From the NCBI GenBank assembly GCA_022767125.1, contig JALEPZ010000034.1, positions 16,840-80,839 of the forward strand: 64,000 nucleotides of DNA, written 5' to 3'. Below, piece after piece: positions 40,137 to 63,796 of this stretch. The DNA comes from Phocaeicola plebeius (GTDB lineage Bacteria > Bacteroidota > Bacteroidia > Bacteroidales > Bacteroidaceae). Each line of letters starts with the position of its first letter. The stretch's first letter is position 1. The notes beneath the pieces are model-generated. The model made no database searches and was not told the origin of the DNA. It saw nothing but the letters and a program-made list of their open reading frames with translations. The position numbers and the translations under genes are program-made.

Positions 40137-40702
40137 AGATTTCGTCGATAGGAAAAAGACTGCCAACGCTCCTCCTGCCGGTCGGCCTGCCACAGCGCGT
40201 GACGGGCCAAGACGAAAAAGAGGTCGGACAGCCGGTTCAAATAGCGTAACACGAGTTCGGGAACAGGATCTTGCCGGTGGAGGGTCCAGAGCCGCCGTTC
40301 GGCCCGACGGGCCACAGTACGGGCCATGTGCAGGTGAGCCGCCATGGGTGTTCCTCCGGGCAGCAGGAAATGGGCCGACTCGCCCATCTCGGCAGTCAGT
40401 CTGTCCATTGTAACTTCGCAGTCCTCTACCCACCCCTCCTCCAGCCGGTTGGGATGGCCGTTGCGCAAGGAAGAAGGAGTGGCCACCTGGCTCATCACGG
40501 CCATCAGCCGCAGCTGCACCTCACGCAACAGCGACTGCCAGTCATGGCTGTCGGGCAGCAGGGAGCGGACCACGCCCACCACCGCATTCAGCTCGTCCAG
40601 ACAGCCGTTCGCTTCGATGCGGATGTCATCCTTCGGCACCCGCCCGCCCCCGGCCACACGGGTCATCCCCCGGTCGCCGCTTCGTGTATAAATTCGTTTC
40701 AT
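40133..40702 (-). CDS. PduO-type ATP:corrinoid adenosyltransferase
   Basis: IYTRSGDRG, DELN, ARTVARRAER, LNRLSDLFF. ATG at 40702. Confidence 0.95.
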   Translation of the reverse strand: MKRIYTRSGDRGMTRVAGGGRVPKDDIRIEANGCLDELNAVVGVVRSLLPDSHDWQSLLREVQLRLMAVMSQVATPSSLRNGHPNRLEEGWVEDCEVTMDRLTAEMGESAHFLLPGGTPMAAHLHMARTVARRAERRLWTLHRQDPVPELVLRYLNRLSDLFFVLARHALWQADRQEERWQSFSYRRNL

Positions 40703-40724
40703 ATAAACTTTCTGCTTAACTGGC

Positions 40725-40756
40725 TGCAAAATTAAAAATAATATCCTAATTTTGCA
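40725..40756. promoter_or_regulatory. Back-to-back divergent -7 promoter boxes
   Basis: TGCAAAATTA (40725-40734) and TAATTTTGCA (40747-40756) form a perfect 10-bp inverted repeat; each arm contains TAATTTTG, matching TAnnTTTG. Confidence 0.7.
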
Positions 40757-40813
40757 CTGACTTGGGTGAATGAATCCCCACATTAATCGACTACTAACAG
40801 AATATTCTGCATT

Positions 40814-42226: not shown

Positions 42227-43406
42227 GCAGACCTTTTATGTCATCGGAATGACCGACGGCCAGGAAACGTCGTTCCCGGATGAAGTCCGCGAACGGCTGG
42301 CGCAAGGGAAGGTTTTCTCAGGCGGTAAGCGCCACCGCGAGATCGTAAGTCCGCTGCTACCGGAAGGGGTCTCATGGATTGACATTACCGTGCCCCTCGA
42401 CAGCGTGTTCGCCCAATATGAAGGTCATCCCGAGATTGTGGTCTTCGCTTCGGGTGACCCCCTGTTCTATGGATTCGCCGCTACCCTCCAGCGGCGGATG
42501 CCCGAAGCACGGCTGGTGGTCTACCCTACCTTCCATTCGCTACAGCTTCTGGCCCACCGCCTCCTGCTGCCGTATCAAGACTTACATCCAGTGTCACTGA
42601 CCGGCCGTCCCTGGAACGAGCTGGACGAAGCCCTCATTAGCGGCGAACGCCTCATCGGAGTGTTGACCGACCGCCGCAAGACCCCGGCAGCCATTGCCCG
42701 GCGACTGCTCGACTATGGCTACGACAACTACCGGATGCTTCTCGGCGAACGGCTGGGCCATGCCGCCAAAGAACGGGTGCGCAAACTGCAACTTTCTGAA
42801 GCGGCAACGGCAGAGACCGATTTTCCCAACTGTCTCCTGCTGGAGCGAACGGCCCTCCGACCCCGCCCTTTCGGACTGCCCGAAAGCGAGTTCCACCTGC
42901 TGGACGGACGGGTAAACATGATTACCAAGATGCCTATCCGCCTGTTGACCCTCAGCCAGCTGGACCTGCGCCACCGGCACACGTTCTGGGACATCGGCTT
43001 CTGCACCGGCTCAGTATCCATCGAAGCCAAATTGCAGTTCCCCCACCTGCAGATCGTGGCATTTGAGCAGCGCGAGGAAGGACGGGAACTGATAGAGCAG
43101 AATGCCCGGAAATTCGGGACACCGGGCATCCAAGCCCTCATCGGTGACTTTCTGGAGGCCAACCTCTCTGAGTTGCCCCGTCCCGAAGCTGTCTTCATCG
43201 GCGGCCACGGGGGACGGCTGGCTGACCTCCTCCGACGGGTGGACGAAGCCCTGCTGCCAGGCGGGGTCATCGTTTTCAATTCCGTCAGTGCCGACAGCCT
43301 CCGTCTGTTCGAGGAAAGCCTGGTTCCCCTCCACCGCCGCGTCACCCGCCGACTGGCTGTGACCGTCGATTCGTTTAACCCTATAACCATTCTTAAAGCT
43401 GAATGA
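42219..43406 (+). CDS. cbiE: CbiE-CbiT fusion
   Basis: FASGDPLFYG; TKMPIR, WDIGFCTGSVSIE, FIGGHGG. ATG at 42219. Confidence 0.93.
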   Translation: MCKQTFYVIGMTDGQETSFPDEVRERLAQGKVFSGGKRHREIVSPLLPEGVSWIDITVPLDSVFAQYEGHPEIVVFASGDPLFYGFAATLQRRMPEARLVVYPTFHSLQLLAHRLLLPYQDLHPVSLTGRPWNELDEALISGERLIGVLTDRRKTPAAIARRLLDYGYDNYRMLLGERLGHAAKERVRKLQLSEAATAETDFPNCLLLERTALRPRPFGLPESEFHLLDGRVNMITKMPIRLLTLSQLDLRHRHTFWDIGFCTGSVSIEAKLQFPHLQIVAFEQREEGRELIEQNARKFGTPGIQALIGDFLEANLSELPRPEAVFIGGHGGRLADLLRRVDEALLPGGVIVFNSVSADSLRLFEESLVPLHRRVTRRLAVTVDSFNPITILKAE

Positions 43407-45223
43407 TTGCTATCCTGTTGATTTCTGAATCGGCCCTTCCCCTGGCCGAAACCTTACGGCGTGAGCTGGCCGACACGGTCTTCTATTCCCACAAGGAATT
43501 GCCGGGCTGCACCGCCGTCCCTTCATTCTCCCGTTGGCTCTCCGACCATGTCCAGGAGTATTCTGCCATTGTCTTCATCGGTGCCTTGGGCATCTGTGTG
43601 CGGACCATCATCCCTTGCCTGCACAACAAGTACACCGATCCGGCCGTGGTCTGTGTGGACACCACCGGACGCTACGCCATCCCGGTTCTTTCGGGTCATA
43701 TCGGCGGAGCCAACGAACTGAGCCGCCGCATTGCCGCCCTGTTTGGCGGGGAAGCTGTCGTGACCACCCAAAGCGACAACATGGGACTATGGGCCCTCGA
43801 TACCCTGGCCCGACAGTATGGCTGGCAGACCGATGCCACCCGGGCCCACATGAACCGCTGCATTTTCCTCTTTGTCGGCCAACGGCCCACAGCCCTGCTG
43901 CTGGAAGTGCGCGACCGGGGAACAGCGGAGCTTGAAAGAAACCTGCCGGCTCATGTCCGGGTGTTTTACCGCCTTGCGGACATCCCACAGGATGAATTCG
44001 AACTGCTGATTGCCGTCACCCCCTTCCTACCTGTTCCAGGCGAAGTACATCTGCCGGTCCTCTACTATTACCCCCCAGTGCTCCACCTCGGCATGGGCTG
44101 CAAGAAGCAGTGCCGCCCCGACGGAGTGGCCGACTACATCTCTGGGCAGCTGAAGGACCACCGGCTCGCTCCGCAGTCTGTCGCTTCCATCAGCACCATC
44201 ACCCTGAAACAGAACGAGCCGCTTCTCCATGCCCTTCACGATACCTGGCCCCAATCGCGCCTTCATGTCTATCCCGCGGAAGAATTGGCCGATATCGAGG
44301 TGCCCCATCCTTCAGAACAAGCCTTCCGGGTGACGGGACTCTACGGCGTGGCCGAAGCAGCTGCTCTGAAGAGCGGAAAGGAAGGTCCGCTACTCATCGA
44401 CAAACAGAAAGGCTGCCTATACGAGGGACATTACTTCACTTTCGCTGTCTGCCTCGACCGCCCTGCATCGCGCTGCGGACACATCGAGATTGTGGGAGCC
44501 GGACCCGGTGACCCCGAACTGATATCGATACGAGGCCGCCGTTTCCTCGAACAGGCCGACCTTATTCTCTATGCCGGCAGCTTGGTACCCGTCGAACTGA
44601 CTGCCTGTGCCAAGAACGGAGCCACGGTGCGTAGTTCCGCCTCCCTCACCCTGGAAGAGCAGTTCGAACTGATGAAGTCGTTCTACGACCAGGGCCTTCT
44701 GGTGGTGCGCCTCCACACGGGTGACCCCTGTATCTACGGGGCCATTCAGGAGCAGATGGCCTTCTTCGACCGCCACCACATGAGTTACCACATCACCCCC
44801 GGCATTTCCTCGTTCCAAGCTGCTGCTGCTGCTCTCCGCTCGCAGTTCACCATTCCCGAAAAGGTACAGACCATCATCCTGACCCGCGGCGAGGGTCGGA
44901 CCCCCATGCCGGAAAAAGAACAGCTCCACCTGCTGGCCCGCTCGCAAAGTACCCTGTGCATCTACCTGAGTGCCGGCATCGTGGAAAAGGTGCAGGAAGA
45001 ACTGCTGCAAGCCTATCCGCCCGAGACACCGGTGGCCGCCTGCTACAAGCTGACCTGGAAAGAGGAACGCATCTACCGAGGACAGCTGAAGGACCTGGCT
45101 CGCCTTGTTCGCGACAACAAACTGACTCTGACCACTTTGCTTGTAGTGGGCGAAGCCATCGATAACCGCCGAGGACTATCACGGCTCTATGCCCACGATT
45201 TCCATCACTTGTACCGGCCATGA
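43403..45223 (+). CDS. cbiG: CbiG-CbiF fusion
   Basis: K..DPAVV, LSGHIGGAN, GVAEAAAL; C-half GAGPGDPELI, RLHTGDP. Confidence 0.93.
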   Translation: MIAILLISESALPLAETLRRELADTVFYSHKELPGCTAVPSFSRWLSDHVQEYSAIVFIGALGICVRTIIPCLHNKYTDPAVVCVDTTGRYAIPVLSGHIGGANELSRRIAALFGGEAVVTTQSDNMGLWALDTLARQYGWQTDATRAHMNRCIFLFVGQRPTALLLEVRDRGTAELERNLPAHVRVFYRLADIPQDEFELLIAVTPFLPVPGEVHLPVLYYYPPVLHLGMGCKKQCRPDGVADYISGQLKDHRLAPQSVASISTITLKQNEPLLHALHDTWPQSRLHVYPAEELADIEVPHPSEQAFRVTGLYGVAEAAALKSGKEGPLLIDKQKGCLYEGHYFTFAVCLDRPASRCGHIEIVGAGPGDPELISIRGRRFLEQADLILYAGSLVPVELTACAKNGATVRSSASLTLEEQFELMKSFYDQGLLVVRLHTGDPCIYGAIQEQMAFFDRHHMSYHITPGISSFQAAAAALRSQFTIPEKVQTIILTRGEGRTPMPEKEQLHLLARSQSTLCIYLSAGIVEKVQEELLQAYPPETPVAACYKLTWKEERIYRGQLKDLARLVRDNKLTLTTLLVVGEAIDNRRGLSRLYAHDFHHLYRP

Positions 45224-47007
45224 TACTTATATTAGGAGGAACCACCGAAGGACGGCTGGCAGTGAGGGTGGCCGATGAAGCCGGTTCGCCCTATTTCTAC
45301 TCAACGAAAGGACACGAACAACAGGTGACCTGCCGGAACGGGACGCACCTGACAGGCGGCATGGACGGGGCGGCCCTGACGGAATGCTGCCGCACCCACG
45401 GCATCCGGCTGCTAGTGGACGCAGCCCATCCCTTTGCCACCGAGCTTCACCGCCATGTGGCCGAAGCAGCCCGGCAACTGCACCTGCCCGTCGTACGCAT
45501 CGAACGGCAGTACCCATCCCGTTCGTCGGACATCGTGTGGTGTGACGACTACGACGATGCCCTGCACCGTCTGGAACAAGACGGTATCAGCCGCTTACTT
45601 GCCCTTACCGGTGTACAGACCATCGGCCGCCTGCGCCCGTACTGGCAACACCACACCTGCTGGTTCCGCATCCTGCCCCGTCCCTCTTCGATGGCACTGG
45701 CGCAGGAACAGGGATTCGACAAATGCAATCTGGTATTCTATCAGGTTAACGACGAAGAGCGGTTGGTGCAGCAGCTGTCGCCCGATGCCCTTCTGACCAA
45801 AGAGAGCGGCGAATCGGGCGGATTTGCGGCAAAGGTAACCGCAGCCCGTGCCGCCGGCATCCCCATCTATGCCGTAAAACGCCCTCCCCTGCCCGACGGC
45901 TTCCACCTCGTCACGGGTGAACATGGGTTGCGCAAGGCCATTGAACAGGCTGTTCCGGGATTCTTTCCCCTACGCAGCGGCTTCACCACAGGAGCCTGTG
46001 CCACGGCGGCCACCAAGGCGGCCCTGCTGGCTTTGCTGGGGCAGACGGTCGGTGAGGAAGTCACCATCACCCTGCCCGACGGCGAACACATTGCCCTCCC
46101 CCTCCACGAAGTGACACGGGCGGACGATGCCGCCACTGCCGCTGTCCGGAAGGACGCAGGCGATGACCCCGACATAACAAACGGACGGCTGATTCTTTCC
46201 ACTGTCCGCTTCTCCTCCTGTCCGGGCATCCGGTTCCTGCAAGGCGAAGGCGTAGGCCGTGTCACCCTTCCCGGCCTGGGCTTGCCTGTCGGCGAACCGG
46301 CCATCAACCCTACGCCCCGACGGATGATGGAACAGGAAGTCACTGCCCTCTATCAAGGCGGGGTAGACATCACCCTCTCCATACCCGGCGGACGGGAACT
46401 GGCCTTGCGCACATTCAATCCCAAATTAGGGGTCACAGACGGACTTTCCATTATCGGTACATCGGGCATTGTCCATCCGTTCTCATCGGAAGCCTTTGTC
46501 GAGACCATCCGCCGCGAAATCGAGGTTTTCCGAGCCGTAGGCGGTGAACGGCTCGTCATCAATTCGGGAGCACGGAGCGAACGTTTCCTCCGAGACCACT
46601 ACCCCGACCTGCCGCCACAGGCTTTTGTCCACTATGGCAACTACGTCGGTGCGACGCTTCGTGCAGCAGCAGACCTAGAAGTCGGCCGGCTCACCCTGGG
46701 CATCATGATTGGCAAGGCAGTGAAACTGGCAGAAGGCCAGCTCGATACCCACAGCCGGGAACATCTCATGAACAAGGTCTTCCTGCAACAGCTGGCCGCC
46801 GACGCCAGCTGCAGCGAAGCAGCCCATACTGTTATCGAAGAACTGACCCTGGCCCGCGAGCTGTGGACCCGACTGTCGGTCGCCGACCTCGACCGGTTCC
46901 TGACAGCCCTACTGGCCGCCTGCCGCCGCTGGTGCCGCACGGTCTATCCCAAGGGCGAACTGACCCTCCTGCTGATGGACGAGGAGGGACAAATCAGATG
47001 CGGTTGA
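45220..47007 (+). CDS. cbiD: CbiJ-CbiD fusion
   Basis: LILGGTTEG, VDAAHPFA, TKESGESGG; C-half GFTTGACA, KDAGDDPD, GLSIIGTSG. Confidence 0.93.
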   Translation: MILILGGTTEGRLAVRVADEAGSPYFYSTKGHEQQVTCRNGTHLTGGMDGAALTECCRTHGIRLLVDAAHPFATELHRHVAEAARQLHLPVVRIERQYPSRSSDIVWCDDYDDALHRLEQDGISRLLALTGVQTIGRLRPYWQHHTCWFRILPRPSSMALAQEQGFDKCNLVFYQVNDEERLVQQLSPDALLTKESGESGGFAAKVTAARAAGIPIYAVKRPPLPDGFHLVTGEHGLRKAIEQAVPGFFPLRSGFTTGACATAATKAALLALLGQTVGEEVTITLPDGEHIALPLHEVTRADDAATAAVRKDAGDDPDITNGRLILSTVRFSSCPGIRFLQGEGVGRVTLPGLGLPVGEPAINPTPRRMMEQEVTALYQGGVDITLSIPGGRELALRTFNPKLGVTDGLSIIGTSGIVHPFSSEAFVETIRREIEVFRAVGGERLVINSGARSERFLRDHYPDLPPQAFVHYGNYVGATLRAAADLEVGRLTLGIMIGKAVKLAEGQLDTHSREHLMNKVFLQQLAADASCSEAAHTVIEELTLARELWTRLSVADLDRFLTALLAACRRWCRTVYPKGELTLLLMDEEGQIRCG

Positions 47008-51321: not shown

Positions 51322-51388
51322 GTGTTTTTCATGGTATTAGATTTAAGGTTAATGAAGATTGGGAATCTGGGAAGATTCCCTTTTTTTT
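51322..51388 (+). ncRNA. Candidate free-standing ~67-nt sRNA
   Basis: Promoter box, unstructured AU-rich body (GTGTTTTTCATGGTATTAGATTTAAGGTTAA) and strong intrinsic terminator; no ORF. Confidence 0.75.
51361..51388 (+). terminator. Intrinsic terminator of the sRNA candidate
   Basis: GGGAATCT-GGGA-AGATTCCC followed by T8. Confidence 0.88.
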
Positions 51389-51471
51389 GCTGCATCCGGA
51401 AGCCTTCAAAGGAGAAAGCTGAGCAGCAGAAGAAAGGAGACGATTAGAGAGACGTGCCATAATAACAATCC

Positions 51472-51555: not shown

Positions 51556-52899
51556 TTACCGACTGGAGGGCGAAGTGTCCCCAATTGCCTGACAATGTCT
51601 ACGATGGAACGCCTCAATTCTTTCCCGAAAGAGCGGCTGGAGATCTTCAGAGAAGAACGAAGTACAGATGCGGACACCCTGCTGCGTCGACCCCATTGTA
51701 TCCAGCGGATAGACAGCAATGCCGTAATACATCAACTCACGCGTCAGCTGCAGGTCGTTCATTCCCGGATACTGTACGGTGAAATAAAAGCCATCAGCCA
51801 GCGGTGCCCCTAAGTCGTTGTCGTAAACAAGGTAGAATCCGTTGGAAAGTAACACTTCTTTCATGAACCGAGCACGGCGGCCGTATTCCTTCACATCGTC
51901 CAGGAAATTGTAGGAGCCGTCGCAAGCCGCTTCCATGAGTGCGGCCATGGCATGCTGCACACTGTGAGTAGTACCGCTGGAGAACGTGTACATCAGTCGG
52001 TTGGCAAAGAAATTGCCGAACTCACCCACGCCGAAATTCTCCTGCAGCGACGGGTATACACGGTGATAGAGGCGGTTGCTGATGCAGCAGACCCCGATGC
52101 GCTGGCCTGCGTAGGAAAAGGCCTTCGAGCCGGAAACAGAAAGCATATAGTTATCCGTATAGCGAGCTACTGTGGCCTGATAGGGTGCCTCAAAGGGGTG
52201 CGAGAGGTCACGACGGAAGTCCATGGCAAAATAAGCAAGGTCTTCCAGCACGATGAAATCATAGTGCGTAGCCAGACGACCGATGCCCTCCAGTTCTTCC
52301 TCGTTGAAACACACCCACGACGGGTTGTTGGGATTGGAATAGACGATTCCGCAGATATTATACTGGGATACCATTTCCTCCAGTTTGTCAATCAGGTCCT
52401 TGCCACGGTAGTCGTGGATATCGAGTCCGATATGGCGGATGCCGATGACATCACATTGCGTGGTCTGCACCGGAAATCCCGGATGGATGAACAGCACCGT
52501 TGGCTCGCCTTTCTCGTTGGTCACTGAAGCATGTTTCCAGATGGTGAAGGCGGCGAAGGTACCCTGCATAGACCCGGTAGTCGGTATGCAGCAGAGCGGG
52601 TCGATGTCCACCCCGATAAAGGCTTTGACAAACTGTGAAGCTGCCTGCTTGATGCGCGGTATTCCCCCATTGGGTGGGTAAATCGTAGCACACCCGTTGG
52701 CCAGAGCTTCCTGCTCCGCCTTCAAGGCGATGGCTGAGGGCTGCAGTCCTGGAACCCCCATCTCCAAGTGGATTACTTTCTCTCCGGTCTTTTCTTCCAG
52801 CGTCCGCGACAAGGCCTGAATGTCGCGGATGGTTGCTTGTGAGAAGTCACCGAGTCCCATCCGGTTAATGGTCTCGGTGACAATAGTATAGTCAAACAT
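51556..52899 (-). CDS. PLP-dependent aminotransferase class I/II
   Basis: HLEMGVPG, YSNPNNPSW, EDLAY, SGSKAFSYAGQRIG (PLP Lys). ATG at 52899. Confidence 0.92.
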   Translation of the reverse strand: MFDYTIVTETINRMGLGDFSQATIRDIQALSRTLEEKTGEKVIHLEMGVPGLQPSAIALKAEQEALANGCATIYPPNGGIPRIKQAASQFVKAFIGVDIDPLCCIPTTGSMQGTFAAFTIWKHASVTNEKGEPTVLFIHPGFPVQTTQCDVIGIRHIGLDIHDYRGKDLIDKLEEMVSQYNICGIVYSNPNNPSWVCFNEEELEGIGRLATHYDFIVLEDLAYFAMDFRRDLSHPFEAPYQATVARYTDNYMLSVSGSKAFSYAGQRIGVCCISNRLYHRVYPSLQENFGVGEFGNFFANRLMYTFSSGTTHSVQHAMAALMEAACDGSYNFLDDVKEYGRRARFMKEVLLSNGFYLVYDNDLGAPLADGFYFTVQYPGMNDLQLTRELMYYGIAVYPLDTMGSTQQGVRICTSFFSEDLQPLFRERIEAFHRRHCQAIGDTSPSSR

Positions 52900-52901
52900 G
52901 C

Positions 52902-54209
52902 TCAATTCTTGAAGTTTCTCTTATCGTTCACGTGTTTTGCCTTCCCGATGGAACGCTGAATCTGACCCGGCTCCTTGATGTGGATGTTCGGCTTGATGCC
53001 CACCATCGACACAATGCGGTCGTAGAGCGGCTTTATGTACGGCATCTGGCGGGAAGGATTAGGCGAGAAGTACTCGCTGCGGAGTTCCACGTCGAGGTCG
53101 AAGGTATCCTCGTTGTTCTTGCGGTCAACGGTGATGAAATACTGCGCCGTGAAGGCCGGGAACTCAGTGAGACAAGTCTCGATCTGGCTGGGGAACACGT
53201 TCACTCCGCGGATAATCATCATGTCATCGGAACGACCCAGGATGCGGTCCATGCGCACAGCCGTACGTCCGCATTCGCACTTGTCGTAGATGAGGCGCGT
53301 AAGGTCGCGGGTACGATAGCGGATAATCGGCATTGCCTCCTTGCAGAGCGACGTGAACACCAGTTCCCCGAACTCACCCGGTTCGCACGGTTCCAGCGTA
53401 TCGGGATTGATGATTTCGGGGAAAAACATATCTTCCCAGAGATGGGTACCGTTCTGGCATTCGCATTCGCCTCCCACTCCCGGTCCGCACATTTCCGTGA
53501 GTCCGTATATGTCGATGGCCTTGATGCCCAAGCGTTCCTGCAGTTCCTTGCGCATTCCCTCCGTCCAAGGTTCCGCACCGAAGAAACCGACTCGCAGTTT
53601 CAGGTCTTCCTTCTTTACGCTTTCGCTCTTCTCTATTACTTCCGCCAGGTGAAGGGCATACGAAGGCGTGCAGCAGAGCACCGACGAGCCGAAATCCTTC
53701 ATCAGCATGATCTGCTTCTCGGAGTTACCGGCCGAAGTAGGCAACTGCACGGCACCCAGCAGGCCGGCTGCATCGTGTGCACCAAGTCCTCCCGTAAAGA
53801 GTCCGTAGCCATAACTCACCTGAACAATGTCTCCCTTGGTGACACCGCCTGCCGCCATGACTCGAGCCGCCCCTTCCGCCCACATGGCGAGGTCGTTCTT
53901 GGTATAAGTGCCCACCACCGGCTTTCCGGTCGTGCCCGACGAAGCATGGATGCGTACCACCTCACTCTGCGGAACGGCCTGGAGGCCGAAAGGATATTCA
54001 TCGCGAAGGTCGTGCTTGGTAGTAAAAGGCAGACGATGGATGTCGTCAATCGATTTGATATCTTCGGGTTTGATGCCCATCTTGTCCATTTTCCGGCGAT
54101 AGAAGGGCACTTTCTCATAACATGTCTTTACGGTCTTGATAAGCCGCTCAGTCTGCAGCTTGCGCATAGACTCCCGGTCCATGCATTCCATTGCTCTGTT
54201 TAAAATCAT
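52902..54209 (-). CDS. paaK: Phenylacetate/aryl-acid--CoA ligase, copy 1
   Basis: HASSGTTGKP, YGYGLFTGGLG, DIYGLTEMCGPG, RYRTRD, GRSDDMMIIRGVNVFP. Confidence 0.93.
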   Translation of the reverse strand: MILNRAMECMDRESMRKLQTERLIKTVKTCYEKVPFYRRKMDKMGIKPEDIKSIDDIHRLPFTTKHDLRDEYPFGLQAVPQSEVVRIHASSGTTGKPVVGTYTKNDLAMWAEGAARVMAAGGVTKGDIVQVSYGYGLFTGGLGAHDAAGLLGAVQLPTSAGNSEKQIMLMKDFGSSVLCCTPSYALHLAEVIEKSESVKKEDLKLRVGFFGAEPWTEGMRKELQERLGIKAIDIYGLTEMCGPGVGGECECQNGTHLWEDMFFPEIINPDTLEPCEPGEFGELVFTSLCKEAMPIIRYRTRDLTRLIYDKCECGRTAVRMDRILGRSDDMMIIRGVNVFPSQIETCLTEFPAFTAQYFITVDRKNNEDTFDLDVELRSEYFSPNPSRQMPYIKPLYDRIVSMVGIKPNIHIKEPGQIQRSIGKAKHVNDKRNFKN

Positions 54210-54314
54210 AATCTATCAGTTTAAAGTTTCTTTCTTAAGTCAAATCATGGGCTGACCATCTCCGTGGTAAGGTCATCCGGACAATCAGGATTCCCCCTTC
54301 GCCCCTATCCCATT

Positions 54315-55874
54315 TTATTTATAGCAGTCGAAGATTCCGTCGACTATGCGGCGGTCCATCTTCGAGGTACAAAGACTAACGAGAGCCACCACCACGAAAC
54401 CGCCTACCATTGCCACCGCTCCACAATCTATCGGGTTTAGGAGGGCATTACCGAGCATCATGTTCACTACGGTCAGTCCAACCCCCCAGACGAAGCAAGC
54501 CCACACGGCAAGTCGGGTCACCCCTTTCCAGTAGAGGCCCATCAGGAACGGGGCAAGGAAAGCACCGGCAAGCGCTCCCCAGGAGATACCCATCAGCTGG
54601 GCAATGAACTGGGGCGGATTGAGGGCAATCATCAGTGAAAGGGCGATAAAGAACACGATGAACACCCGCATGACCAATACCTTCCGACGTTCAATCTTCT
54701 CGGCCACGAGGTCATCGATTTCACCGCCGGCCACCTCGCCTTCCTGCGATTTTTTATCGCGGTAGATGAGGTCGAGGGTCATGGTCGAAGAGGAAGTAAG
54801 TGCCAAAGAAGCAAGGGTGGACATAGAAGCCGAGAGAACCAGCAACACGACAAGGGCAATGAGTACATCGGGCAGGGTCTCCAGCATCGACGGTACAATG
54901 CTGTCGAAAGCATACTTCTGCTTCTCTACGCTGAAGGCCGGCTCAGGGAACAGACGGCCAAAGCCCCCAAGGAAGTAGCAGCCTCCCGCCACCACCAATG
55001 CAAAGATCGTGGAGATGATGGTGCCGCGGCGGATAGCCGACTCGTCGGTGATGGAATAAAACTTGCCGACCATCTGTGGCAGTCCCCATGTACCCAGCGA
55101 AGTAAGGATAACCACGCCGAGCAGACTCAGCGGAGCAGGCCCGAAGCAGGAGGCGAAATCGCCGGGCTGAAAGCGGGCGAAAAGCCCCGACTTGTCTTCC
55201 AGGTCATGGGCCGTCGGCACCGCCTCCCCCATCTTGGTTATTGCCTCCACAAGGCCACCCTGATGATGGAGTACCACGGCAATCACGGTCGAAATGCCGA
55301 AGAGCATGATAATGCCTTGAATGAAGTCGTTAATGGCCGTTGCCTTGTATCCACCGAGAATGACATAGACGGCGGTGAGCAGGGCCATGATGATGGCGCA
55401 GTAGGCATACGGAATTCCGAAGCCCATCTCGAAGAGTTTAGAGATACCCATATAGACACCTGCCGTGTAGGGGATGAGGAAGATAAAGGCAATGACGGAG
55501 GCCGCCACGCGAAGGCCCTCGTCTGCATACCGAGTGCCGAAGAAGTCGGGCATAGTGCGGCTCTGTATGTGCTGCGTCATCAGTTTGGTGCGTTTGCCCA
55601 GCACCAGCCACGCCAGCAACGAGCCGATAACGGCGTTGCCCACTCCGATCCACGATGCTGACATGCCGTATTTCCAGCCGAATTGGCCGGCGTAGCCCAC
55701 GAACACGACAGCAGAAAAATAAGAGGTGCCATAAGCAAAGGCAGTGAGCCAAGGACCCACGGAACGTCCGCCCAGTACGAAGCCGTCGACCGACTTCGCC
55801 TGCTTTCTCGAATACACTCCCACTGCTACTGTGACGCAGAGGAAGATAATGGTCAATAAAATCTTGATGAACAT
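54315..55874 (-). CDS. Sodium:solute symporter (SSS) family
   Basis: GFVLGGRSVGPWL, YVILGG, SASMST and about 13 TM segments. ATG at 55874. Confidence 0.92.
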   Translation of the reverse strand: MFIKILLTIIFLCVTVAVGVYSRKQAKSVDGFVLGGRSVGPWLTAFAYGTSYFSAVVFVGYAGQFGWKYGMSASWIGVGNAVIGSLLAWLVLGKRTKLMTQHIQSRTMPDFFGTRYADEGLRVAASVIAFIFLIPYTAGVYMGISKLFEMGFGIPYAYCAIIMALLTAVYVILGGYKATAINDFIQGIIMLFGISTVIAVVLHHQGGLVEAITKMGEAVPTAHDLEDKSGLFARFQPGDFASCFGPAPLSLLGVVILTSLGTWGLPQMVGKFYSITDESAIRRGTIISTIFALVVAGGCYFLGGFGRLFPEPAFSVEKQKYAFDSIVPSMLETLPDVLIALVVLLVLSASMSTLASLALTSSSTMTLDLIYRDKKSQEGEVAGGEIDDLVAEKIERRKVLVMRVFIVFFIALSLMIALNPPQFIAQLMGISWGALAGAFLAPFLMGLYWKGVTRLAVWACFVWGVGLTVVNMMLGNALLNPIDCGAVAMVGGFVVVALVSLCTSKMDRRIVDGIFDCYK

Positions 55875-55888
55875 ATGCTGTATTTTTC

Positions 55889-56983
55889 TTAAAATGCCAC
55901 TTGCACCTGTGCCTGCAGCAGGCTCCGATTGTTCCCCTGCAATGCCTTCATGGCATCGCTGCGTAGGCTGTAGGTATATTGTGCCTGTACACGGCACTTC
56001 TTGAAGATCCAATACTGCAGTCCTGCCATGAGGTTTGTCTTCTTCAACCGGGCATCGGTATTATAGTTCATATAGTCGGCCATAGCCACTACATCCAGGC
56101 CTTTATAGACGGGAATGGCCGTCGAAAGGTAAGCTCCAAAACTCTTGCAGCCACCGTCCTTGCCGCCAATCAGCTCTGAGCGCACCACCGCACAACGATG
56201 GTGGTGGTAGTCGCTGCCCGCCCGCTTCGACTTCCACTCCACACCTGCCGAGTAACGGTTCTGGCGATAGGTATCGCCCACCTGCACGGTGGGGTTATAG
56301 GCGGAAGCGTTCATGGCCGTCCCGTAGCCCAGCTGTCCGGAAACAGACAACCGGAAGTTGGGAACCGGCTTGTATTCGAGTTTCGCAATCACGTTCTTCT
56401 TGTTGTCCTTGTCGGCAGCATTGGTCTGTCCGCCATTCACCACCTCCAGCACATAAAACAAGTGACCGCTGAAGAGGGATCCGTAAGCCATCAGTCCCAT
56501 GTCGCGGCCGGCAGGATTGCCCATCAAAGGATCGGCCCCACACAGCCAGAACACGCCCTGCGACATAGGCGAAATGCTCTCTAGCACGGTGGGCGACATG
56601 GGATTCTCCATAGAAATTTCCGTCTTTGACTGGCCAAATCGGAGGTTCAGTGCCTTTAACGGACGGTATTCGAGATAATACTCCTGCATGTCCTTACTCT
56701 TGAAGTCGTGCATAAAGAAAGCATAAAACTGGGGAGTGACGTTAGCTCCCACCATAAGGATGGCGCGGTACATTTCGAACGAATTGGCATTCTGGCCGTT
56801 CTCGGTCAGGGTGGCTGTGTAGCCGGCCTGCGCATATCCCGTCACTTTCAGGCGCGAGGCCACGGCATCGGCCCAGTATGCCACATCCTTCTCCTGGTTT
56901 GTTGCCGGAGGACTGGTCATCTCCCCCCATGCCATAGCTGCCGAAAACAGCCAGACAGCAAGGCCAACAAAGGTTTTTTTCAT
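55889..56983 (-). CDS. Outer-membrane porin (OprO/OprP-like)
   Basis: Signal peptide, amphipathic beta strands, GRDMGLM motif and terminal QVQVAF. Confidence 0.8.
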   Translation of the reverse strand: MKKTFVGLAVWLFSAAMAWGEMTSPPATNQEKDVAYWADAVASRLKVTGYAQAGYTATLTENGQNANSFEMYRAILMVGANVTPQFYAFFMHDFKSKDMQEYYLEYRPLKALNLRFGQSKTEISMENPMSPTVLESISPMSQGVFWLCGADPLMGNPAGRDMGLMAYGSLFSGHLFYVLEVVNGGQTNAADKDNKKNVIAKLEYKPVPNFRLSVSGQLGYGTAMNASAYNPTVQVGDTYRQNRYSAGVEWKSKRAGSDYHHHRCAVVRSELIGGKDGGCKSFGAYLSTAIPVYKGLDVVAMADYMNYNTDARLKKTNLMAGLQYWIFKKCRVQAQYTYSLRSDAMKALQGNNRSLLQAQVQVAF

Positions 56984-57414
56984 AAATCGATTTTTTTCAG
57001 TTCATTTTCAGTGATATAATCCAATTGGTTCAGCATAATCGCTTCCTCTGCCTTGTCGGGACTGTCGGGACGAATCACCACAATGCCACATCCTCCGAAG
57101 AGGAACGAGTACATGTATTTGATTTCCACGCCGACCTGTGTTACCAGCCGGACGATTTCCGCTGCCGCCCCCGGCTGGTTGCTGGCAAGGCGGATGGCAT
57201 AGACATTGGTGATGGTAGCCGAGATGTTCTTGTCGCGCAACAGGCGGAAAGCCCTTTCTGGATCGTTGCAGATGATGCGGTAGATGCCGAACCCGTCGGT
57301 ATCGCCCAGTGTACTAACGATGATGCTGATGCCATTGTCACGCAACATTTCGAGAATCCGTAGCAACGCACCGCTACGGTTCTCGATAAAAATGGAAAGC
57401 TGTTTTATTGTCAT
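56980..57414 (-). CDS. Tandem-ACT-domain small protein
   Basis: MTIKQLSIFIENRSG...NQPG...IKYMYSF, typical of ACT proteins found beside paaK. Confidence 0.9.
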   Translation of the reverse strand: MTIKQLSIFIENRSGALLRILEMLRDNGISIIVSTLGDTDGFGIYRIICNDPERAFRLLRDKNISATITNVYAIRLASNQPGAAAEIVRLVTQVGVEIKYMYSFLFGGCGIVVIRPDSPDKAEEAIMLNQLDYITENELKKIDL

Positions 57415-57428
57415 ATTTCTTCTCTACA

Positions 57429-58763
57429 TTATTTATAAACGGTTCGCTTGTCTACTACGCGCACTGCCTTTCCTTCGCTGACGGGCAGCGTACCCTTGGG
57501 CACGAGCTTCACGATGGGGGTCAGCAGAATTTCATCCTTCAGTGCACGGGTGATGGACTTCTGCAGGGCCGTGAGCCGCTGGTAGTCGTCGGTGAAGAGC
57601 TGTTCCAATTCCACCTCCACGGTCATGTTATCGTTGTTCTCGTCGGTGGTGAGAGTGATGAGGTAGTTGTTGGCCAGCTCTTTGAACTGCATCAGGATCT
57701 TCTCGATCTGTATGGGGAAGATGTTCACTCCGCGCAGCACCATCATGTCGTCCGAGCGGCCTCTCATGCGGTCGATGCGCACGTGGTTGCGTCCGCAGGG
57801 GCAAGACCGTCCAAGCACCCGTGTCAAGTCGCGTGTGCGGTAGCGCAGCAGCGGCATGGCTTCGCGGTTGAGGGTGGTGAGCACCAGTTCGCCGATTTCT
57901 CCGTCGGGCACCGGTTCCAGCGTTTCGGGGTCCACAATCTCCACGATGTAGTAATCTTCCCAAAAGTGGAGTCCGTTTTGCTCCTTACATTCGAATCCTA
58001 CACCGGGTCCGCACATCTCCGACATGCCGAAGGAGTTGTAGGCCTTCACACCCATCATTTCTTCGATTCTCTGGCGCTGCTCTTCCGAGTGCGGCTCCGC
58101 ACCGATGGCCAGCACGCGCAGCTTTGTGTCGCGGCGGGGGTCAATGCCTTGCTCCACCATCACCTCGTGCAGGCGGGTCACGTACGACGGCACAGCATGT
58201 ACGGCAGTGGTTCCGAAGTCGGTCATAAACTTGATCTGGCGCAGCGAGTTGCCCGCCGCCGCCGGGATGGTCAGCATACCGATGCGTTCGGCCCCATATT
58301 GGAACCCGAGTCCTCCCGTAAACATGCCGTAGCCCGAAGAATTCTGGAACACATCGTCGGGACGCAGTCCCACCATCCACAGGTTGCGGGCCACCTGATT
58401 GGCCCACTCGTCGAGGTCTTTCTGGGTGTGCAGGATGACGGTAGGGTTACCGGTCGTTCCCGACGACGAATGCAGACGCACACATTCAGTAAGGGGCACA
58501 GAAGCAAGGCCGAACGGATACGTATCGCGAAGGTCCTGCTTGGTGGTGAAGGGAATGCGGCGGATGTCGTCTACGCACGTAATGCTCTCTGGCGACACGC
58601 CCGCTCTTTCCAGCCGTTCCTTATACACTGGGTTGTTCATACAGTGCGCCACAGTGGCCCGCAACCGGTCCACCTGCAGCGCAGCAATTTCCGTCCTCGA
58701 CATCGTCTCCCGTTCAGGGTCGAGGTATTCTGACTTCCAGTCAGGTAAAGGTCTTCTGTACAT
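57429..58763 (-). CDS. paaK: Phenylacetate/aryl-acid--CoA ligase, copy 2
   Basis: HSSSGTTGNP, GYGMFTGGLG, NSFGMSEMCGPG, RYRTRD, GRSDDMMVLRGVNIFP. Confidence 0.93.
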   Translation of the reverse strand: MYRRPLPDWKSEYLDPERETMSRTEIAALQVDRLRATVAHCMNNPVYKERLERAGVSPESITCVDDIRRIPFTTKQDLRDTYPFGLASVPLTECVRLHSSSGTTGNPTVILHTQKDLDEWANQVARNLWMVGLRPDDVFQNSSGYGMFTGGLGFQYGAERIGMLTIPAAAGNSLRQIKFMTDFGTTAVHAVPSYVTRLHEVMVEQGIDPRRDTKLRVLAIGAEPHSEEQRQRIEEMMGVKAYNSFGMSEMCGPGVGFECKEQNGLHFWEDYYIVEIVDPETLEPVPDGEIGELVLTTLNREAMPLLRYRTRDLTRVLGRSCPCGRNHVRIDRMRGRSDDMMVLRGVNIFPIQIEKILMQFKELANNYLITLTTDENNDNMTVEVELEQLFTDDYQRLTALQKSITRALKDEILLTPIVKLVPKGTLPVSEGKAVRVVDKRTVYK

Positions 58764-58769
58764 GCTTCT

Positions 58770-59342
58770 TCAATTGTTCGCCCCCTTGTCAAACGCCTTC
58801 AGGTTAGCCTCTACCACAGCCTCACCCTTGCGGGCAAAGATGTTGGCCACAGCGTTGCGCAGGGCTTCCGATGAAACGATTTCGATGTATTTCGCAGCCA
58901 TTCCCAGCAGCACCACGTTGGCCGAACGGGCCGAACCGGCTTCCTTGGCCACATTCTCGATGTCGAGCATGATGACTTTGTTGGGCAAGGCGTTCAGTTC
59001 GTCGAACAGTGCCTGCTCATCAGGATAGTTGGGAATGTTGACAAAGGGTTTGTTGCTGGTCACGATGACCCCGTCCTTAGCCAGATAAGGCAGATAGCGC
59101 AGGGCCTCCATCGGTTCCATGGAGATAATCATATCAGCTCCTCCCTTCTGGATCAGATCGCTATAGATGGTTGTCGTAGAAAGGCGGAGGTTCGACTGCA
59201 CGTCACCACCGCGCTGGCTCATGCCATGTACTTCCGCCTGTTTCAGGTGGATGCCCGCCAACGTGGCCGCTTCGCCGATAATAGTTGCAATGGAGAGGAT
59301 ACCTTGTCCTCCCACACCACACAATATAATGTCTTTTTTCAT
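58770..59342 (-). CDS. iorB: Indolepyruvate (arylpyruvate):ferredoxin oxidoreductase beta subunit
   Basis: GVGGQGIL, EVHGMSQRGGDV, ANVVLLG. Confidence 0.95.
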   Translation of the reverse strand: MKKDIILCGVGGQGILSIATIIGEAATLAGIHLKQAEVHGMSQRGGDVQSNLRLSTTTIYSDLIQKGGADMIISMEPMEALRYLPYLAKDGVIVTSNKPFVNIPNYPDEQALFDELNALPNKVIMLDIENVAKEAGSARSANVVLLGMAAKYIEIVSSEALRNAVANIFARKGEAVVEANLKAFDKGANN

Positions 59343-59357
59343 ACGTTCAAATAATGC

Positions 59358-60980
59358 TTAGTTCTTCTTTCTCTCCCGTGCGTGCCGGGCGGCCGTCTGA
59401 ATGCACTCGCGGCGCGGGATAATCACTGAGACTCCGTTGTACTCGATCTCTTCCTTAATGGTACGGGTTATTTCCTCCATGTTCTTCGGCAGGGGCACCA
59501 CCACGCGTACGTGTGCTGGATCTACGCCCAGGCCGATGCAGATAGCTTCGAACTTGTTGGTACCTGCCGAGTCCTGTCCGCCGGTCATGCCGGTGGTGAG
59601 GTTATCCGAAATGATTACCGTGATGTTCGACCCGTCGTTGACGGCATCGAGCAGTCCTGTCATACCGGAGTGAGTGAAAGTAGAGTCACCTATAACGGCA
59701 ATGGCAGGAAACAGTCCGGCATCGGCCGCTCCCTTGGCCATGGTGATAGACGCCCCCATGTCAACGCAGCTCGAGAGGGCCTTATAGGGCGGCAGTGCTC
59801 CGAGGGTATAGCAGCCGATGTCGCCAAAGATGCGATGGTCGGGATAGTCGGCAGCCACCTTGTTCAGGGCCGCATACACATCGCGGTGGCCACATCCCTG
59901 GCAGAGCTGGGGCGGACGGGCGGCAAGGTTCTTGGCCACGGGCAAAATGGCCGGCAGGTCCACGCCCATGGCAACAGCCACACAATCGGGTGTCAGTTCA
60001 CCGGTCCGGGGCAGTGTGCCTGTCAGCCTTCCCGTCACGGGGTAGTCCGTTCCGAGCATCCCCTTCACGGCCTCTTCCACCACAGGCTGTCCGTCTTCCA
60101 CCACGAGGATCTTTGCACTCTCATGGGCCAACTGGCGGATGCGCTCTTCCGAAAGCGGGTATTGCGACACCTTTTCTATATTATAGCAGGCCTGTTTCTC
60201 CAAGGGCAACTGGGCAATAGCCTCTTTCACGTAGTTGTAGCCGATGCCGCAGGCCACGATGCCCGTCTTCTCTACCGTAGGGACCGTTTCGCTATATTCG
60301 CTTCGGTTGAACGGCGACCGGTGGCTGGCTTGAATCATGTCAGCCTGCTTCCCGATTAGTGCGTCGTATTTCTTTCGGGCAATGCCGGGCAGCAACACCC
60401 ATGCGTCGGTAGAGATATGAAGAGCGTTCTGTTCGCGCGGTTCCTTCACCATCACTCCCGCACGGGAATGGGCCAGGCGGGTCACCACGCGCAGCAACAC
60501 GGGTTCCTTGATGGCCTCCGAATAGTCGAAAGCCACTTCCATCATATCATACGCCTCCTGTTGGTCGGAAGGTTCGAAGACAGGCAACAGGGCAAATTTT
60601 CCATAAAAGCGGGAATCCTGCTCATTCTGACTGGAATGCATCGAGGGGTCGTCGGCAGCCAGTACCACCAATCCGCCCTGTACGCCGGTAATGGCGCTGT
60701 TGATGAAAGCATCGGCACAGACATTCATGCCCACATGTTTCATGCAGACAAGAGCCCGCTTGCCTGCATACGACATTCCAAGGGCCGCCTCCATGGCTGT
60801 TTTCTCATTCGTACACCAGCGCGAATGGATGCCGCGCTCTTTGGCTAAGGGATGATGCTGGATGAACTCGGTAATTTCTGTCGAGGGGGTGCCGGGATAG
60901 GCATAAACTCCGCTCAGACCAGCATGTATGGCGCCGAGTGCAATCGCTTCATCTCCCAAAAGAAGTTTCTTTTCCATCAT
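59358..60980 (-). CDS. iorA: Indolepyruvate (arylpyruvate):ferredoxin oxidoreductase alpha subunit
   Basis: YAYPGTPSTEI, NEKTAME, RPPQLCQGCGHR, GDIGCY, ThDP motif GDSTFTHSG...N. Confidence 0.96.
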   Translation of the reverse strand: MMEKKLLLGDEAIALGAIHAGLSGVYAYPGTPSTEITEFIQHHPLAKERGIHSRWCTNEKTAMEAALGMSYAGKRALVCMKHVGMNVCADAFINSAITGVQGGLVVLAADDPSMHSSQNEQDSRFYGKFALLPVFEPSDQQEAYDMMEVAFDYSEAIKEPVLLRVVTRLAHSRAGVMVKEPREQNALHISTDAWVLLPGIARKKYDALIGKQADMIQASHRSPFNRSEYSETVPTVEKTGIVACGIGYNYVKEAIAQLPLEKQACYNIEKVSQYPLSEERIRQLAHESAKILVVEDGQPVVEEAVKGMLGTDYPVTGRLTGTLPRTGELTPDCVAVAMGVDLPAILPVAKNLAARPPQLCQGCGHRDVYAALNKVAADYPDHRIFGDIGCYTLGALPPYKALSSCVDMGASITMAKGAADAGLFPAIAVIGDSTFTHSGMTGLLDAVNDGSNITVIISDNLTTGMTGGQDSAGTNKFEAICIGLGVDPAHVRVVVPLPKNMEEITRTIKEEIEYNGVSVIIPRRECIQTAARHARERKKN

Positions 60981-61029
60981 TTTACAATTATTATATCGTA
61001 GATTTTGTATCGTTTAAGGGTTCTGGGCA

Positions 61030-61037
61030 CAAAGTTA
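61030..61037 (-). promoter_or_regulatory. -7 promoter box for the ior-paaK operon
   Basis: TAACTTTG on the minus strand, 50 bp upstream of iorA. Confidence 0.65.
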
Positions 61038-61211
61038 GCGTTTATTCTTTTAATAGCAACAAAAAATTACATTTTGTTTATGTATATAGGTATTTCGTAT
61101 ACAGTCGTATTTTGACATATCCTTACGAAGCTAATGCAACAGGCGGTAGGTCGGTTGCGAAATAAGGAATATCCTGGCAAGCGAAGCAAAGGGACTTTCG
61201 GCAGTGAATAC

Positions 61212-61355: not shown

Positions 61356-62975
61356 TTAGAATTTAACCTCCCGACACAGACAAACCCTTTGATGGGTGAC
61401 AGGATGAACGAACTCTAGGGCAGCGGCATGCAGGCACAAACGATGGGCTGGTGTACCATAGAGCACATCTCCCACAATCGGGAAATCCAGGCCGCGGGCA
61501 TGAGCAGCATGGACCCGCAACTGATGCGTGCGGCCCGTCAGCGGAAAGAAATCCACCAGCGTACGTCCGTTCTGACGGCAACGCACCACATACTGCGTCA
61601 GGGCCGTTTTCCCTTCTAATTCATCCACCTTCTGCCGCGGACGGTCAAGCCAGTCGGGCGACAGGGGCAAGTCGATGGTACCGGTATCTGAAGGGAGAAC
61701 TCCTTCCAGCAAGGCGGTATACCGTTTGCGTACCTGCCTCGTCTCGAACAGCCGCTGCAACTGTTCATGTACCTCTTTTGTTTTGGCTGCCAGCAGCAGG
61801 CCCGATGTGTCCATGTCAAGGCGGTGGACCAGCAAGGGTCCTGTAGCCGACGGGTAGCGACAGCGCAGGCGCGTCAGCACCGAATCATCGGATTTCTTAC
61901 CCGGTACCGACAGTAGGCCGGCCGGCTTGTCCACTACCACCAGCCACTCATCTTCGTAGACCACCTCCAGCTCCCCTTCCTGAACAACATGCTCCAGAGG
62001 ATCCGGCTCAACCTCCAGTCCCTGCAAGGTATGGCGCAGAATCGGCGCGCACTTACCTTGACAGGAGGGATAGAACACTCCTTGACGGCGCACCTCGTTC
62101 TTCGGAGAGTCGCCCCACCAGAATTCCCCGAAGGCTAAGGGATGGAGTTCGTTCAGATAAGCATGCTGGAGCAACTTGGGCAGCGCACATTCGCCAGCCC
62201 CTGCCGGCGGGGTATGTGCCGGCGTATCTCGAAACAGCTCGGTCAGGTCGCGCGTCTCTCCCCGCGCATTGAGCAGCCGGAACTGCCGGAACAAGCGGTT
62301 CTGCAAGGCAGCCGAGCGCGACTTCCGCTCCTGTCTCCATGCCTCCAGCTGCCCGTTCCATTGCCTCAGTTCCGCTTCCTGTACTTCCAGTTCCGCTTTC
62401 ATCCGCCGTTCCAGCCGCTTGTATTCTGCCTTTTCGAACTGGCTCTCGCGCACCAATGCCTGGCGGCCCTCCTCGTCCAGGTTTGTCCGACTACGCAGTT
62501 CTTCCCGAAGGCGTTTCCGCTCTTTCAATGCCTGCCGCGCCGTTTCCAGCTGAACCTGCACCTCCTGCCGCAACTTCTCCGTACGGTTTACGCAGTCCCG
62601 GTAAGCCGCGGAGGCCACCACCTCGTCCATACGATGGTTGATGTCTGAAATCTGCTCCTCCTCGCGACGGAAGAAACCATCGGGACGTAGCAGGTCATAG
62701 ACTGGGGGGACAAAATAATCGTGACGGTTACTCCCTGCCAAGATTCCCGAGAAGGCTGCCGTAAACCCTACACTTCCGTCATCGAGCTGCACGACGAGCA
62801 CCCCGAACATCTTGCCCTGCCGCAATTCCTCCTGCCAGTCGGTACGGGCAGAAAGATAACGCTCCACCTCCTGTGCGGCCAAGACCGTCAGGGGATGGGG
62901 CGTATAGTGAAAAGGATACGTGAACCGTTCGGGCAGAGGAATGTCCGAGATGTCCGTTGTAAACCGATGAATCAT
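61356..62975 (-). CDS. Long-form RluA family pseudouridine synthase
   Basis: [30 protein letters not shown]; coiled-coil N-terminal half. Confidence 0.93.
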
Positions 62976-63796
62976 TCCAAGATGCGTTGTCGGGTAAAGC
63001 AGTCGGCGAATTTCTGGTCTACCTCTTCCACGGCCTCCTTGAAGATGCCGAAGACCGCCGAACCAGAGCCGCTCATCTGGGCGTAGACTGCTCCCAGGTC
63101 ATACAGCTGGTCCTTAATAGCCGCTATTTCGGGATGGCTGACAAAGACGCTCTTCTCGAAATCATTCTTCAGGCAGTCTTTCCACTCCGCAATGGGCCGG
63201 GCGATGGCTTCCTTCAGAGGAATTTCCGGACGCTGCGGACGGATGTTAGCGTAGGCCTCCCGCGTGGAAACGGAGATATCGGGCTTGATGACAACAACAT
63301 GATAGCCCTTCAGCGAGAGAGCAATCGGCTCGAACACGTTTCCCGTGCCCGTAGCCAGTACCGGACGGTTTTGGATGAAGAACGGGCAGTCCGCACCCAG
63401 CCGCGACGCATAACTCTCCATCTCGGCAGGAGTAAGGCCGAGGTTGAACTTCTTGTTGAGTGTCTTGATCATGAACGCACAGTCGGACGACCCTCCTCCC
63501 AGTCCAGCTTCGGTAGGGATATGCTTGTGCAGGTGAATGTCCACGGGTACCAGATGATGCTTTTCGTTCAACAGCCGATAGGCCTTCACCACGAGGTTAT
63601 CCTCCGGACTGCCATCGAGATTAGCTCCAGTTACGTGCAGGCGGAACGATTCGTCGCAGCCCGAGAGTCGTGTCACTTCGAGCGCATCCTGCAGGTTGAT
63701 GGGATAGAACACCGTTTCGAGGTTATGATAGCCATCGGGGCGTTTCTCGACTACGCTCAGTCCCAGGTTTATCTTAGCGTTCGGATAAGTTATCAT
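62972..63796 (-). CDS. ispE: 4-diphosphocytidyl-2-C-methyl-D-erythritol kinase
   Basis: [39 protein letters not shown] box at 63822-63829. Confidence 0.96.

Follow-up and report, generated by a model that had tools for sequence, protein, structure and literature searches.

Within a 64,000-nt stretch of contig JALEPZ010000034.1 from a pig-gut Phocaeicola plebeius (the window, whose positions are the coordinates used below) we analysed an eight-gene operon, ordered iorA-iorB-paaK(copy 2)-ACT-porin-Na+/solute symporter-paaK(copy 1)-aminotransferase, with all eight genes on the minus strand. The explanation that we consider probable on balance, taken as a whole, is that of an operon for arylacetates and aromatic amino acids which works in the salvage direction, with two PaaK-like arylacetate-CoA ligases of differing but overlapping preferences, an HD motif in copy 1 that marks a clade, and an origin as a Prevotella-like block replacing native genes. 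The operon is an instance of the known Bacteroidales system that couples iorAB, encoding indolepyruvate:ferredoxin oxidoreductase (IOR), to an arylacetate-CoA ligase, not a system of a new type, and the transfer of the operon as a whole is well supported. The window's own genome (G000) is 92.8% complete, and L numbers denote homologous loci.

Two intact ligases from two old subfamilies

Copy 1 (52902..54209, 435 amino acids) belongs to the 'HD' clade of the PaaK1-like subfamily; its pocket signature is YFAAIP and its best match in the PDB Burkholderia PaaK1 (E 3e-127). Copy 2 (57429..58763, 444 amino acids) belongs to the 'NSS' subfamily (BT_0428 type) according to its signature, SFFASP, a phmmer match to the sequence of 4R1L/4RVN (BT_0428; E 2e-193, 646 bits) and the tree. 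An earlier note on this DNA had described two diverged paaK genes in one operon and quoted four motifs from them; both reading frames are indeed intact, lie in one operon and carry all four motifs at the places given. The two proteins are 46% identical over 430 columns. Both contain AMP-binding and AMP-binding_C_2 domains together with the ANL motifs SSGTTG, YG/FG-x-x-E, YRTRD, GRSDD and GKA (K423, K432), which places them in the PaaK-like clade of the ANL superfamily. An AlphaFold model of copy 1 (pLDDT 90.6) has a TM score of 0.94 to 2Y27 over 432 columns, and the PaaK fold with its N-terminal helical microdomain was recognised in copy 1 through this model and in copy 2 through its sequence match to BT_0428. 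Copy 1 scores higher against Burkholderia PaaK1 (428 bits) than against BT_0428 (396 bits). Neither ligase reaches the 646-bit cut-off of TIGR02155, the catabolic PaaK equivalog (copy 1, 538 bits; copy 2, 462 bits).

Both ligase genes are under strong purifying selection and neither is decaying. Against Prevotella, copy 1 (99% identical in protein and about 84% in DNA) has a dN/dS of about 0.004 and copy 2 one of 0.02, and a pseudogene or relaxed copy is ruled out by values of 0.004-0.03. Metatranscriptome contigs from two studies span parts of both genes and hint weakly at expression of both ligases, their strand and level being unreadable and carry-over of DNA possible. A predicted complex between copy 2 and the ACT protein scored 0.29 (mark 0.32) and was used neither for nor against any reading. 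The genome also holds a third, distant gene of the ANL family (contig C58, about 56444-57565), whose product is 24% identical to both copies.

The tree places both ligases within groups of Prevotella sequences and gives the HD clade a support of 100; the representatives were taken at 50% identity and are long-branched, leaving the deep branches unsure. Forcing copy 1 and copy 2 into one clade was rejected by the approximately unbiased (AU) test (p-AU 2e-52). The copies are not each other's closest relatives, which rules out a recent tandem duplication; they represent two old subfamilies rather than a local duplication. A PaaK match was found in 174 of 301 Bacteroidaceae genomes, and two matches in about 149 of these 174, by our own count, in which no more than five candidates were scored for any one genome. 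When the genus Phocaeicola was searched, the two matches fell into groups of 55-58% and 44-48% identity, usually at two loci. Two ligases are thus the norm of the family, and in Prevotella-like lineages of the gut the two often share an operon. That related genomes keep one ligase of each kind fits different roles for the two.

Some records depart from this pattern. One Phocaeicola-assigned genome (G004, L146-L148) has three PaaK-like genes, two of them of Bacteroides type, through either transfer or contamination of the bin. The NSS-type ligases at L206 (G373) and L142 (G023) are 85-86% identical to copy 2, compared with 76% in most Phocaeicola, and the grouping of the L206 enzyme with Prevotellaceae/Bacteroidales sequences suggests a separate, earlier replacement. 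HD ligases with 88-92% identity also occur in records named Anaerovoracaceae (L052), Clostridium CAG:217 (L056) and Alistipes putredinis (L053). We did not accept transfer into Firmicutes for the first two, as their neighbouring genes match Bacteroidales-type loci such as L094, to which L052 is near-identical in gene content; nor did we accept transfer into Alistipes. All three are probably mis-binned contigs, the evidence from neighbouring genes covering L052 and L056.

A Prevotella-like block and the reciprocal loss of its parts

The foreign block runs from promoter to aminotransferase (51556..61067, minus strand) and was delimited by DNA identity, protein identities and trees. DNA identity to Prevotella loci is 74-84% over about 51607-61067, and none is seen in the flanks. 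On the flanks, ispE and rsmE resemble their counterparts in a complete Phocaeicola genome (68% and 72% identity) more than those in three Prevotella genomes (52-55%), whereas the operon proteins are 77-99% identical to those of Prevotella locus L031 versus 46-76% to those of the same Phocaeicola genome. Grouping with native Phocaeicola homologues was rejected for each ligase (p-AU 2e-10 and 7e-5). Within the genus, just 3 of 108 genomes have the symporter and 2 of 70 an HD-type ligase, and this rarity makes transfer into Phocaeicola the simpler direction. Synonymous sites close to saturation relative to the nearest Prevotella make the transfer an old one, and none of the genes seen next to the operon belongs to a mobile element. 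The earlier note had suggested a phylogeny to see whether one copy was gained horizontally. Horizontal acquisition was borne out, but it was the whole operon that moved and not one copy, a conclusion we regard as well supported. The donor was Prevotella-like, and the recipient was probably the common ancestor of the host and its sister species.

The same gene order is present in an independent pig-gut assembly (L199) and the same site is occupied in the sister species, which rules out a misassembled or chimeric contig. The exact eight-gene order recurs in 19 of the 80 loci closest to copy 1, and 44 of the 80 also have a copy 2-type gene. Two cultured strains, Prevotella sp. P5-92 and P2-180 (L038, L040), carry the same operon.

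In the sister species (G373; L135-L140, L225 and contig C117; 83-92% DNA identity) the site retains the porin and symporter only. Deletions have removed iorA to ACT and copy 1 to aminotransferase, the former cleanly, so that the iorA promoter is fused to the porin gene. Elsewhere this species keeps iorA-iorB-aminotransferase-paaK(HY)-ACT and paaK(NSS)-ACT. In the host, by comparison, the native ior locus is gone, with a 228-bp gap (G000 contig C56:9063-9291) versus 5.4 kb in G373, and no further close PaaK or IorA was found in its genome. Host and sister thus each end with one ligase per subfamily plus porin and symporter. The block would have entered their common ancestor and then displaced the native genes in the host; having held four ligases, each species appears to have kept one of each subfamily. 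This single pair of events suggests that neither subfamily makes the other redundant, that an HD ligase can be replaced by an HY one, and that the transporters are the lasting gain. On one side of the island, the rluA-like gene and ispE (window 61356-63796) are about 83% identical in DNA to G373, compared with 90-92% on the other flank, possibly through recombination next to the island.

Operon genes and the direction of the pathway

The intergenic gaps across the eight genes are about -4 to 105 nt, with the 105-nt gap just ahead of copy 1, and the genes are probably co-transcribed behind a single promoter motif. A pattern scan placed a putative Bacteroidetes-type motif, TTG-N19-TAnnTTTG, at 61030..61059 (minus strand), 50 nt upstream of iorA; it follows what we take to be the Bacteroidetes promoter consensus. 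The same promoter-like motif precedes iorA in the Prevotella loci L031, L032, L036 and L040 and the porin gene in the sister species (L136). Rfam searches upstream of and inside the operon found no riboswitch or other cis RNA, and sigma-70 and terminator scans gave matches at chance level only.

The putative IOR alpha subunit, IorA (59358..60980, 540 amino acids), was assigned from TIGR03336, POR_N and TPP_enzyme_C. TIGR03336 is its best match (E 1e-150), at 503 bits relative to a cut-off of 651; positions 2-542 of the 595 in the model are matched and the last ~50 are missing. The beta subunit, IorB (58770..59342, 190 amino acids), exceeds the cut-off of NF005324 (296 bits versus 222), and copy 2 begins 6 nt after its gene. 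A tandem ACT-domain protein follows (56980..57414, 144 amino acids, or 140 according to the gene caller; Pfam ACT_8, E 6e-51; PDB 2F06, E 7e-24). The next gene encodes a protein of 364 amino acids (55889..56983) that is probably an outer-membrane porin, judging by a weak match to Porin_O_P (E 2e-4, at the cut-off), an N-terminal signal-like stretch and a terminal Phe. The sodium:solute symporter (54315..55874, 519 amino acids, start as called in L199; Pfam SSF, E 2e-53) scores under every specific NCBIfam cut-off. Downstream of copy 1 lies a class I/II pyridoxal phosphate-dependent aminotransferase (51556..52899, 447 amino acids from ATG; Pfam Aminotran_1_2, E 7e-20; PDB 3G0T, 'putative aminotransferase', E 3e-133), a candidate for action on aromatic substrates from its gene context.

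In the proposed pathway, porin and symporter would import arylacetates, and the two AMP-forming ligases would convert them to aryl-acetyl-CoA, as expected from family chemistry and from a relative of copy 2 in B. thetaiotaomicron. IorAB, a reversible enzyme, may then use reduced ferredoxin to carboxylate aryl-acetyl-CoA to arylpyruvates, from which the aminotransferase would form Phe, Tyr and Trp, with the ACT protein probably sensing the products. Salvage is the most likely direction, although flux may go either way depending on supply. In one study, AMP-forming ligases are described as normally favouring acyl-CoA synthesis and the authors argue for biosynthesis (PMC13285125); rumen cultures can make Phe from phenylacetate (PMC7356843). 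The presence of transporter genes within the operon also speaks for salvage. The ring-oxidation gene PaaA (PF05138) was not found in the host, at its 92.8% completeness, or in four other genomes, in a search that was positive for 4 of 14 control genomes.

Several points weigh against this explanation. B. thetaiotaomicron no longer makes phenylacetate from Phe once BT0430 (iorA) is deleted (bioRxiv 10.64898/2026.09.28.754936), so that IOR also runs oxidatively. The host has TrpA, prephenate dehydratase and dehydrogenase, and chorismate synthase, which makes salvage optional; auxotrophy as a driver is therefore not supported. The substrates proposed for symporter and aminotransferase, like those of the ligases, are predictions, and the pocket argument given below is a mapping of sequence. 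Finally, about 25 of the 174 Bacteroidaceae genomes have a single match and some HD proteins stand alone. Chorismate synthase has two matches in the host (C47:54600-55628 and C92:8325-9272) versus one in each of four other genomes.

The BT0430 result also speaks for a catabolic or overflow direction, which we consider unlikely. Here aminotransferase and IorAB would oxidise aromatic amino acids to aryl-acetyl-CoA, a thioesterase or the reversed ligases (consuming AMP and PPi) would free the acids, and the symporter would import amino acids. It would also suit a 4HBT-family thioesterase gene (L048:8543-8956) that lies directly upstream of the HD ligase and aminotransferase genes in Candidatus Prevotella equi, and the best specific model for the symporter, the amino-acid transporter PutP, although this match is far under its cut-off. 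However, the preference of AMP-forming ligases for acyl-CoA synthesis runs the other way, the gene list of the operon contains no thioesterase or ADP-forming ligase, and two pocket shapes would fit the capture of external acids better.

Aryl pockets and substrate preference

Returning to salvage by two ligases of different preference, the phenyl ring in B. cenocepacia PaaK1 is contacted by Y136, F141, A147, A214, I236 and P245 (PMC4619459). We mapped this list, taken from a secondary paper, by gap-free sequence alignment and not by docked coordinates. The equivalent residues of copy 1 are Y133, F138, A144, A212, I234 and P243, so that all six are conserved; copy 2, like BT_0428, matches at three of six. 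In copy 1 the pocket segment is formed by residues 131-148 (53766..53819, minus strand; Y133, F138 and A144, with H145-D146 on the following helix 142-150, from alignment and model) and the A5 motif by residues 233-239 (53493..53513, minus strand; I234). In copy 2 they correspond to residues 141-158 (58290..58343, minus strand; S143, F148 and F154), a segment identical in BT_0428, and residues 243-249 (58017..58037, minus strand; S244, replacing I236 of PaaK1). The signatures are stable: YFAAIP occurs in 96 of 98 HD and 29 of 43 HY proteins (the latter with I/L variation), and SFFASP in 60 of 61 NSS proteins. The claim that these segments line the acyl-binding pocket and set the copies apart stood in that they carry pocket residues and differ at three of the six phenyl-contacting positions; the Asp of HDAAG is absent from the listed contacts.

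It is likely from these signatures that the two ligases have different but overlapping preferences. The PaaK1-type pocket of copy 1 would suit phenylacetate and 4-hydroxyphenylacetate, and copy 1 may favour phenyl- and hydroxyphenylacetate in general; PaaK1 itself accepts 3- and 4-substituted phenylacetates, including 4-hydroxyphenylacetate, more readily than PaaK2 (PMC7497051). The reshaped pocket of copy 2 (Tyr to Ser, Ile to Ser, Ala to Phe) is predicted to be wider, shorter and more polar, which would favour indoleacetate with the other acids still accepted. The six-residue signature is thus predicted to tell which ligase takes which acid. The earlier note proposed a division of labour among phenyl-, hydroxyphenyl- and indoleacetate. 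A strict three-way split is put in doubt by the 'IA ligase' of B. thetaiotaomicron, an IOR-linked enzyme that was assayed on all three, for the formation of IA-, PA- and HPA-CoA according to the legend of Fig. S11 (PMC13285125). From its gene position this enzyme appears to be BT_0428.

The same assay lends itself to a further explanation, that the substrate ranges of the two ligases are largely alike and that kinetics or regulation explains why both persist, for example through high versus low affinity or ACT-controlled versus uncontrolled activity. The Km values of the Burkholderia pair differ only about 2.4-fold (62 vs 150 µM; PMC9493321), and an ACT gene follows 58 of 61 NSS and 38 of 43 HY ligases but 0 of 95 HD ligases. 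We nevertheless think a shared range quite improbable: the three differing first-shell positions are fixed within each subfamily, the assay as described in that legend was qualitative, with 20 mM acid and 10 µM enzyme (PMC13285125), and the link to ACT genes is labile, as L148 shows, where the Bacteroides-type NSS copy has none.

The HD motif as a clade marker

The earlier note had also singled out HDAAG in copy 1 as a departure from the usual motif. The H-D/E pair is almost invariant in the 120 proteins closest to copy 1. In the model its Asp (D146) lies two residues beyond the pocket Ala, on helix 142-150, and is not itself one of the listed contacts. This position varies across the family, with Tyr in 41 of 112 representatives and Ala in the Bacteroides-type copy, and the first shell of the HD clade is that of ordinary HYG proteins. 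A first-shell pocket change is ruled out by the contact list and the comparison of signatures, and the alignments mark HD as the signature of a Prevotella-centred clade rather than a first-shell change of specificity. Other changes fixed in the clade are F209, G246-G247 and residues 384-411.

The loss of the ACT neighbour in the HD clade is a lead only, as it amounts to one evolutionary event, the linkage is labile elsewhere and it is in the C-terminal region that all three groups (HD, HY and NSS) diverge most. It is conceivable, though rather improbable, that HD ligases have a function of their own in Bacteroidales of herbivore and pig guts: with their ACT neighbour lost and their C-terminal domain and second-shell residues remodelled, they would either escape amino-acid feedback or activate other acids. 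In that case the clade, spreading together with a porin and symporter of its own, would stand for a scavenging module that is free of regulation and reduces the precursors of skatole and p-cresol in the gut. A new substrate such as isovalerate or 2-methylbutyrate, reached through the second shell (Phe209 for Ala/Ile, Gly247 for Tyr/Phe, Asp146 for Tyr), would accord with the long stem branch (0.40) and near-frozen sequence thereafter, the clade-specific F209, G246-G247, D146 and C-terminal segment, and how common the clade is among Bacteroidales of the rumen and hindgut, habitats in which branched-chain acids are known to be carboxylated (PMC7356843), but is very unlikely given a first-shell signature equal to that of PaaK1 and HY proteins, the company of iorAB at most HD loci, and the exchange in which HD replaced the native HY-type gene here while the sister dropped HD and kept its HY gene, which points to equivalence.

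Other features of the window

Between the aminotransferase gene and rsmE lies the FopS small RNA of Bacteroidetes (Rfam RF04319, 75.7 bits; 51322-51390, plus strand), which the sister species retains; a T-tailed hairpin at 51361-51380 falls within this region. Cobalamin biosynthesis genes occupy 40133-47007, including CbiG/methylase and CbiJ-CbiD fusions (annotation as in L199).

Comparison with known systems and significance

The closest known counterpart is the iorA-iorB-BT_0428 cluster of B. thetaiotaomicron (PDB 4R1L/4R1M/4RVN/4RVO; PMC13285125), where IorAB likewise adjoins an NSS-type AMP-forming arylacetate-CoA ligase. Copy 2 is of the BT_0428 type in subfamily sequence and in its position after iorB, and its pocket segments are identical. 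The operon differs in joining a second ligase, ACT protein, porin, symporter and aminotransferase in one unit, and in being a block of Prevotella origin within Phocaeicola. Native Phocaeicola loci (iorA-iorB-aminotransferase-paaK(HY)-ACT and paaK(NSS)-ACT) draw on the same gene families with one ligase per subfamily, but are split over two loci with two ACT genes and without porin or symporter, at 46-76% protein identity to the operon genes. With PaaK1/PaaK2 of Burkholderia cenocepacia (PDB 2Y27, 2Y4N, 2Y4O), invoked earlier as a parallel, the likeness extends to the fold, the ANL motifs and, for copy 1, all six listed phenyl contacts of PaaK1. It is a loose analogy: that pair is 69% identical and feeds aerobic paa ring degradation (PMC4498308), in contrast to 46% identity, separate ancestry and PaaA not found in the genome here. 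The logic of ligase, reversible IOR and aminotransferase is shared with the anabolic IOR route of methanogens (PMC13285125) and with rumen arylacetate carboxylation (PMC7356843), the direction of the operon being putative. Our search found no literature treating PaaK, ACT and IOR together.

Arylacetates are precursors of p-cresol, skatole and phenylacetylglutamine, and on whether Bacteroidales iorAB-paaK genes act as their producers or consumers PMC13285125 and the BT0430 knockout disagree. The operon places an entire candidate route and its transporters under one putative promoter, which would make it a convenient test system. It also comes with a natural experiment, in which two sister species have retained opposite halves of a duplicated set.

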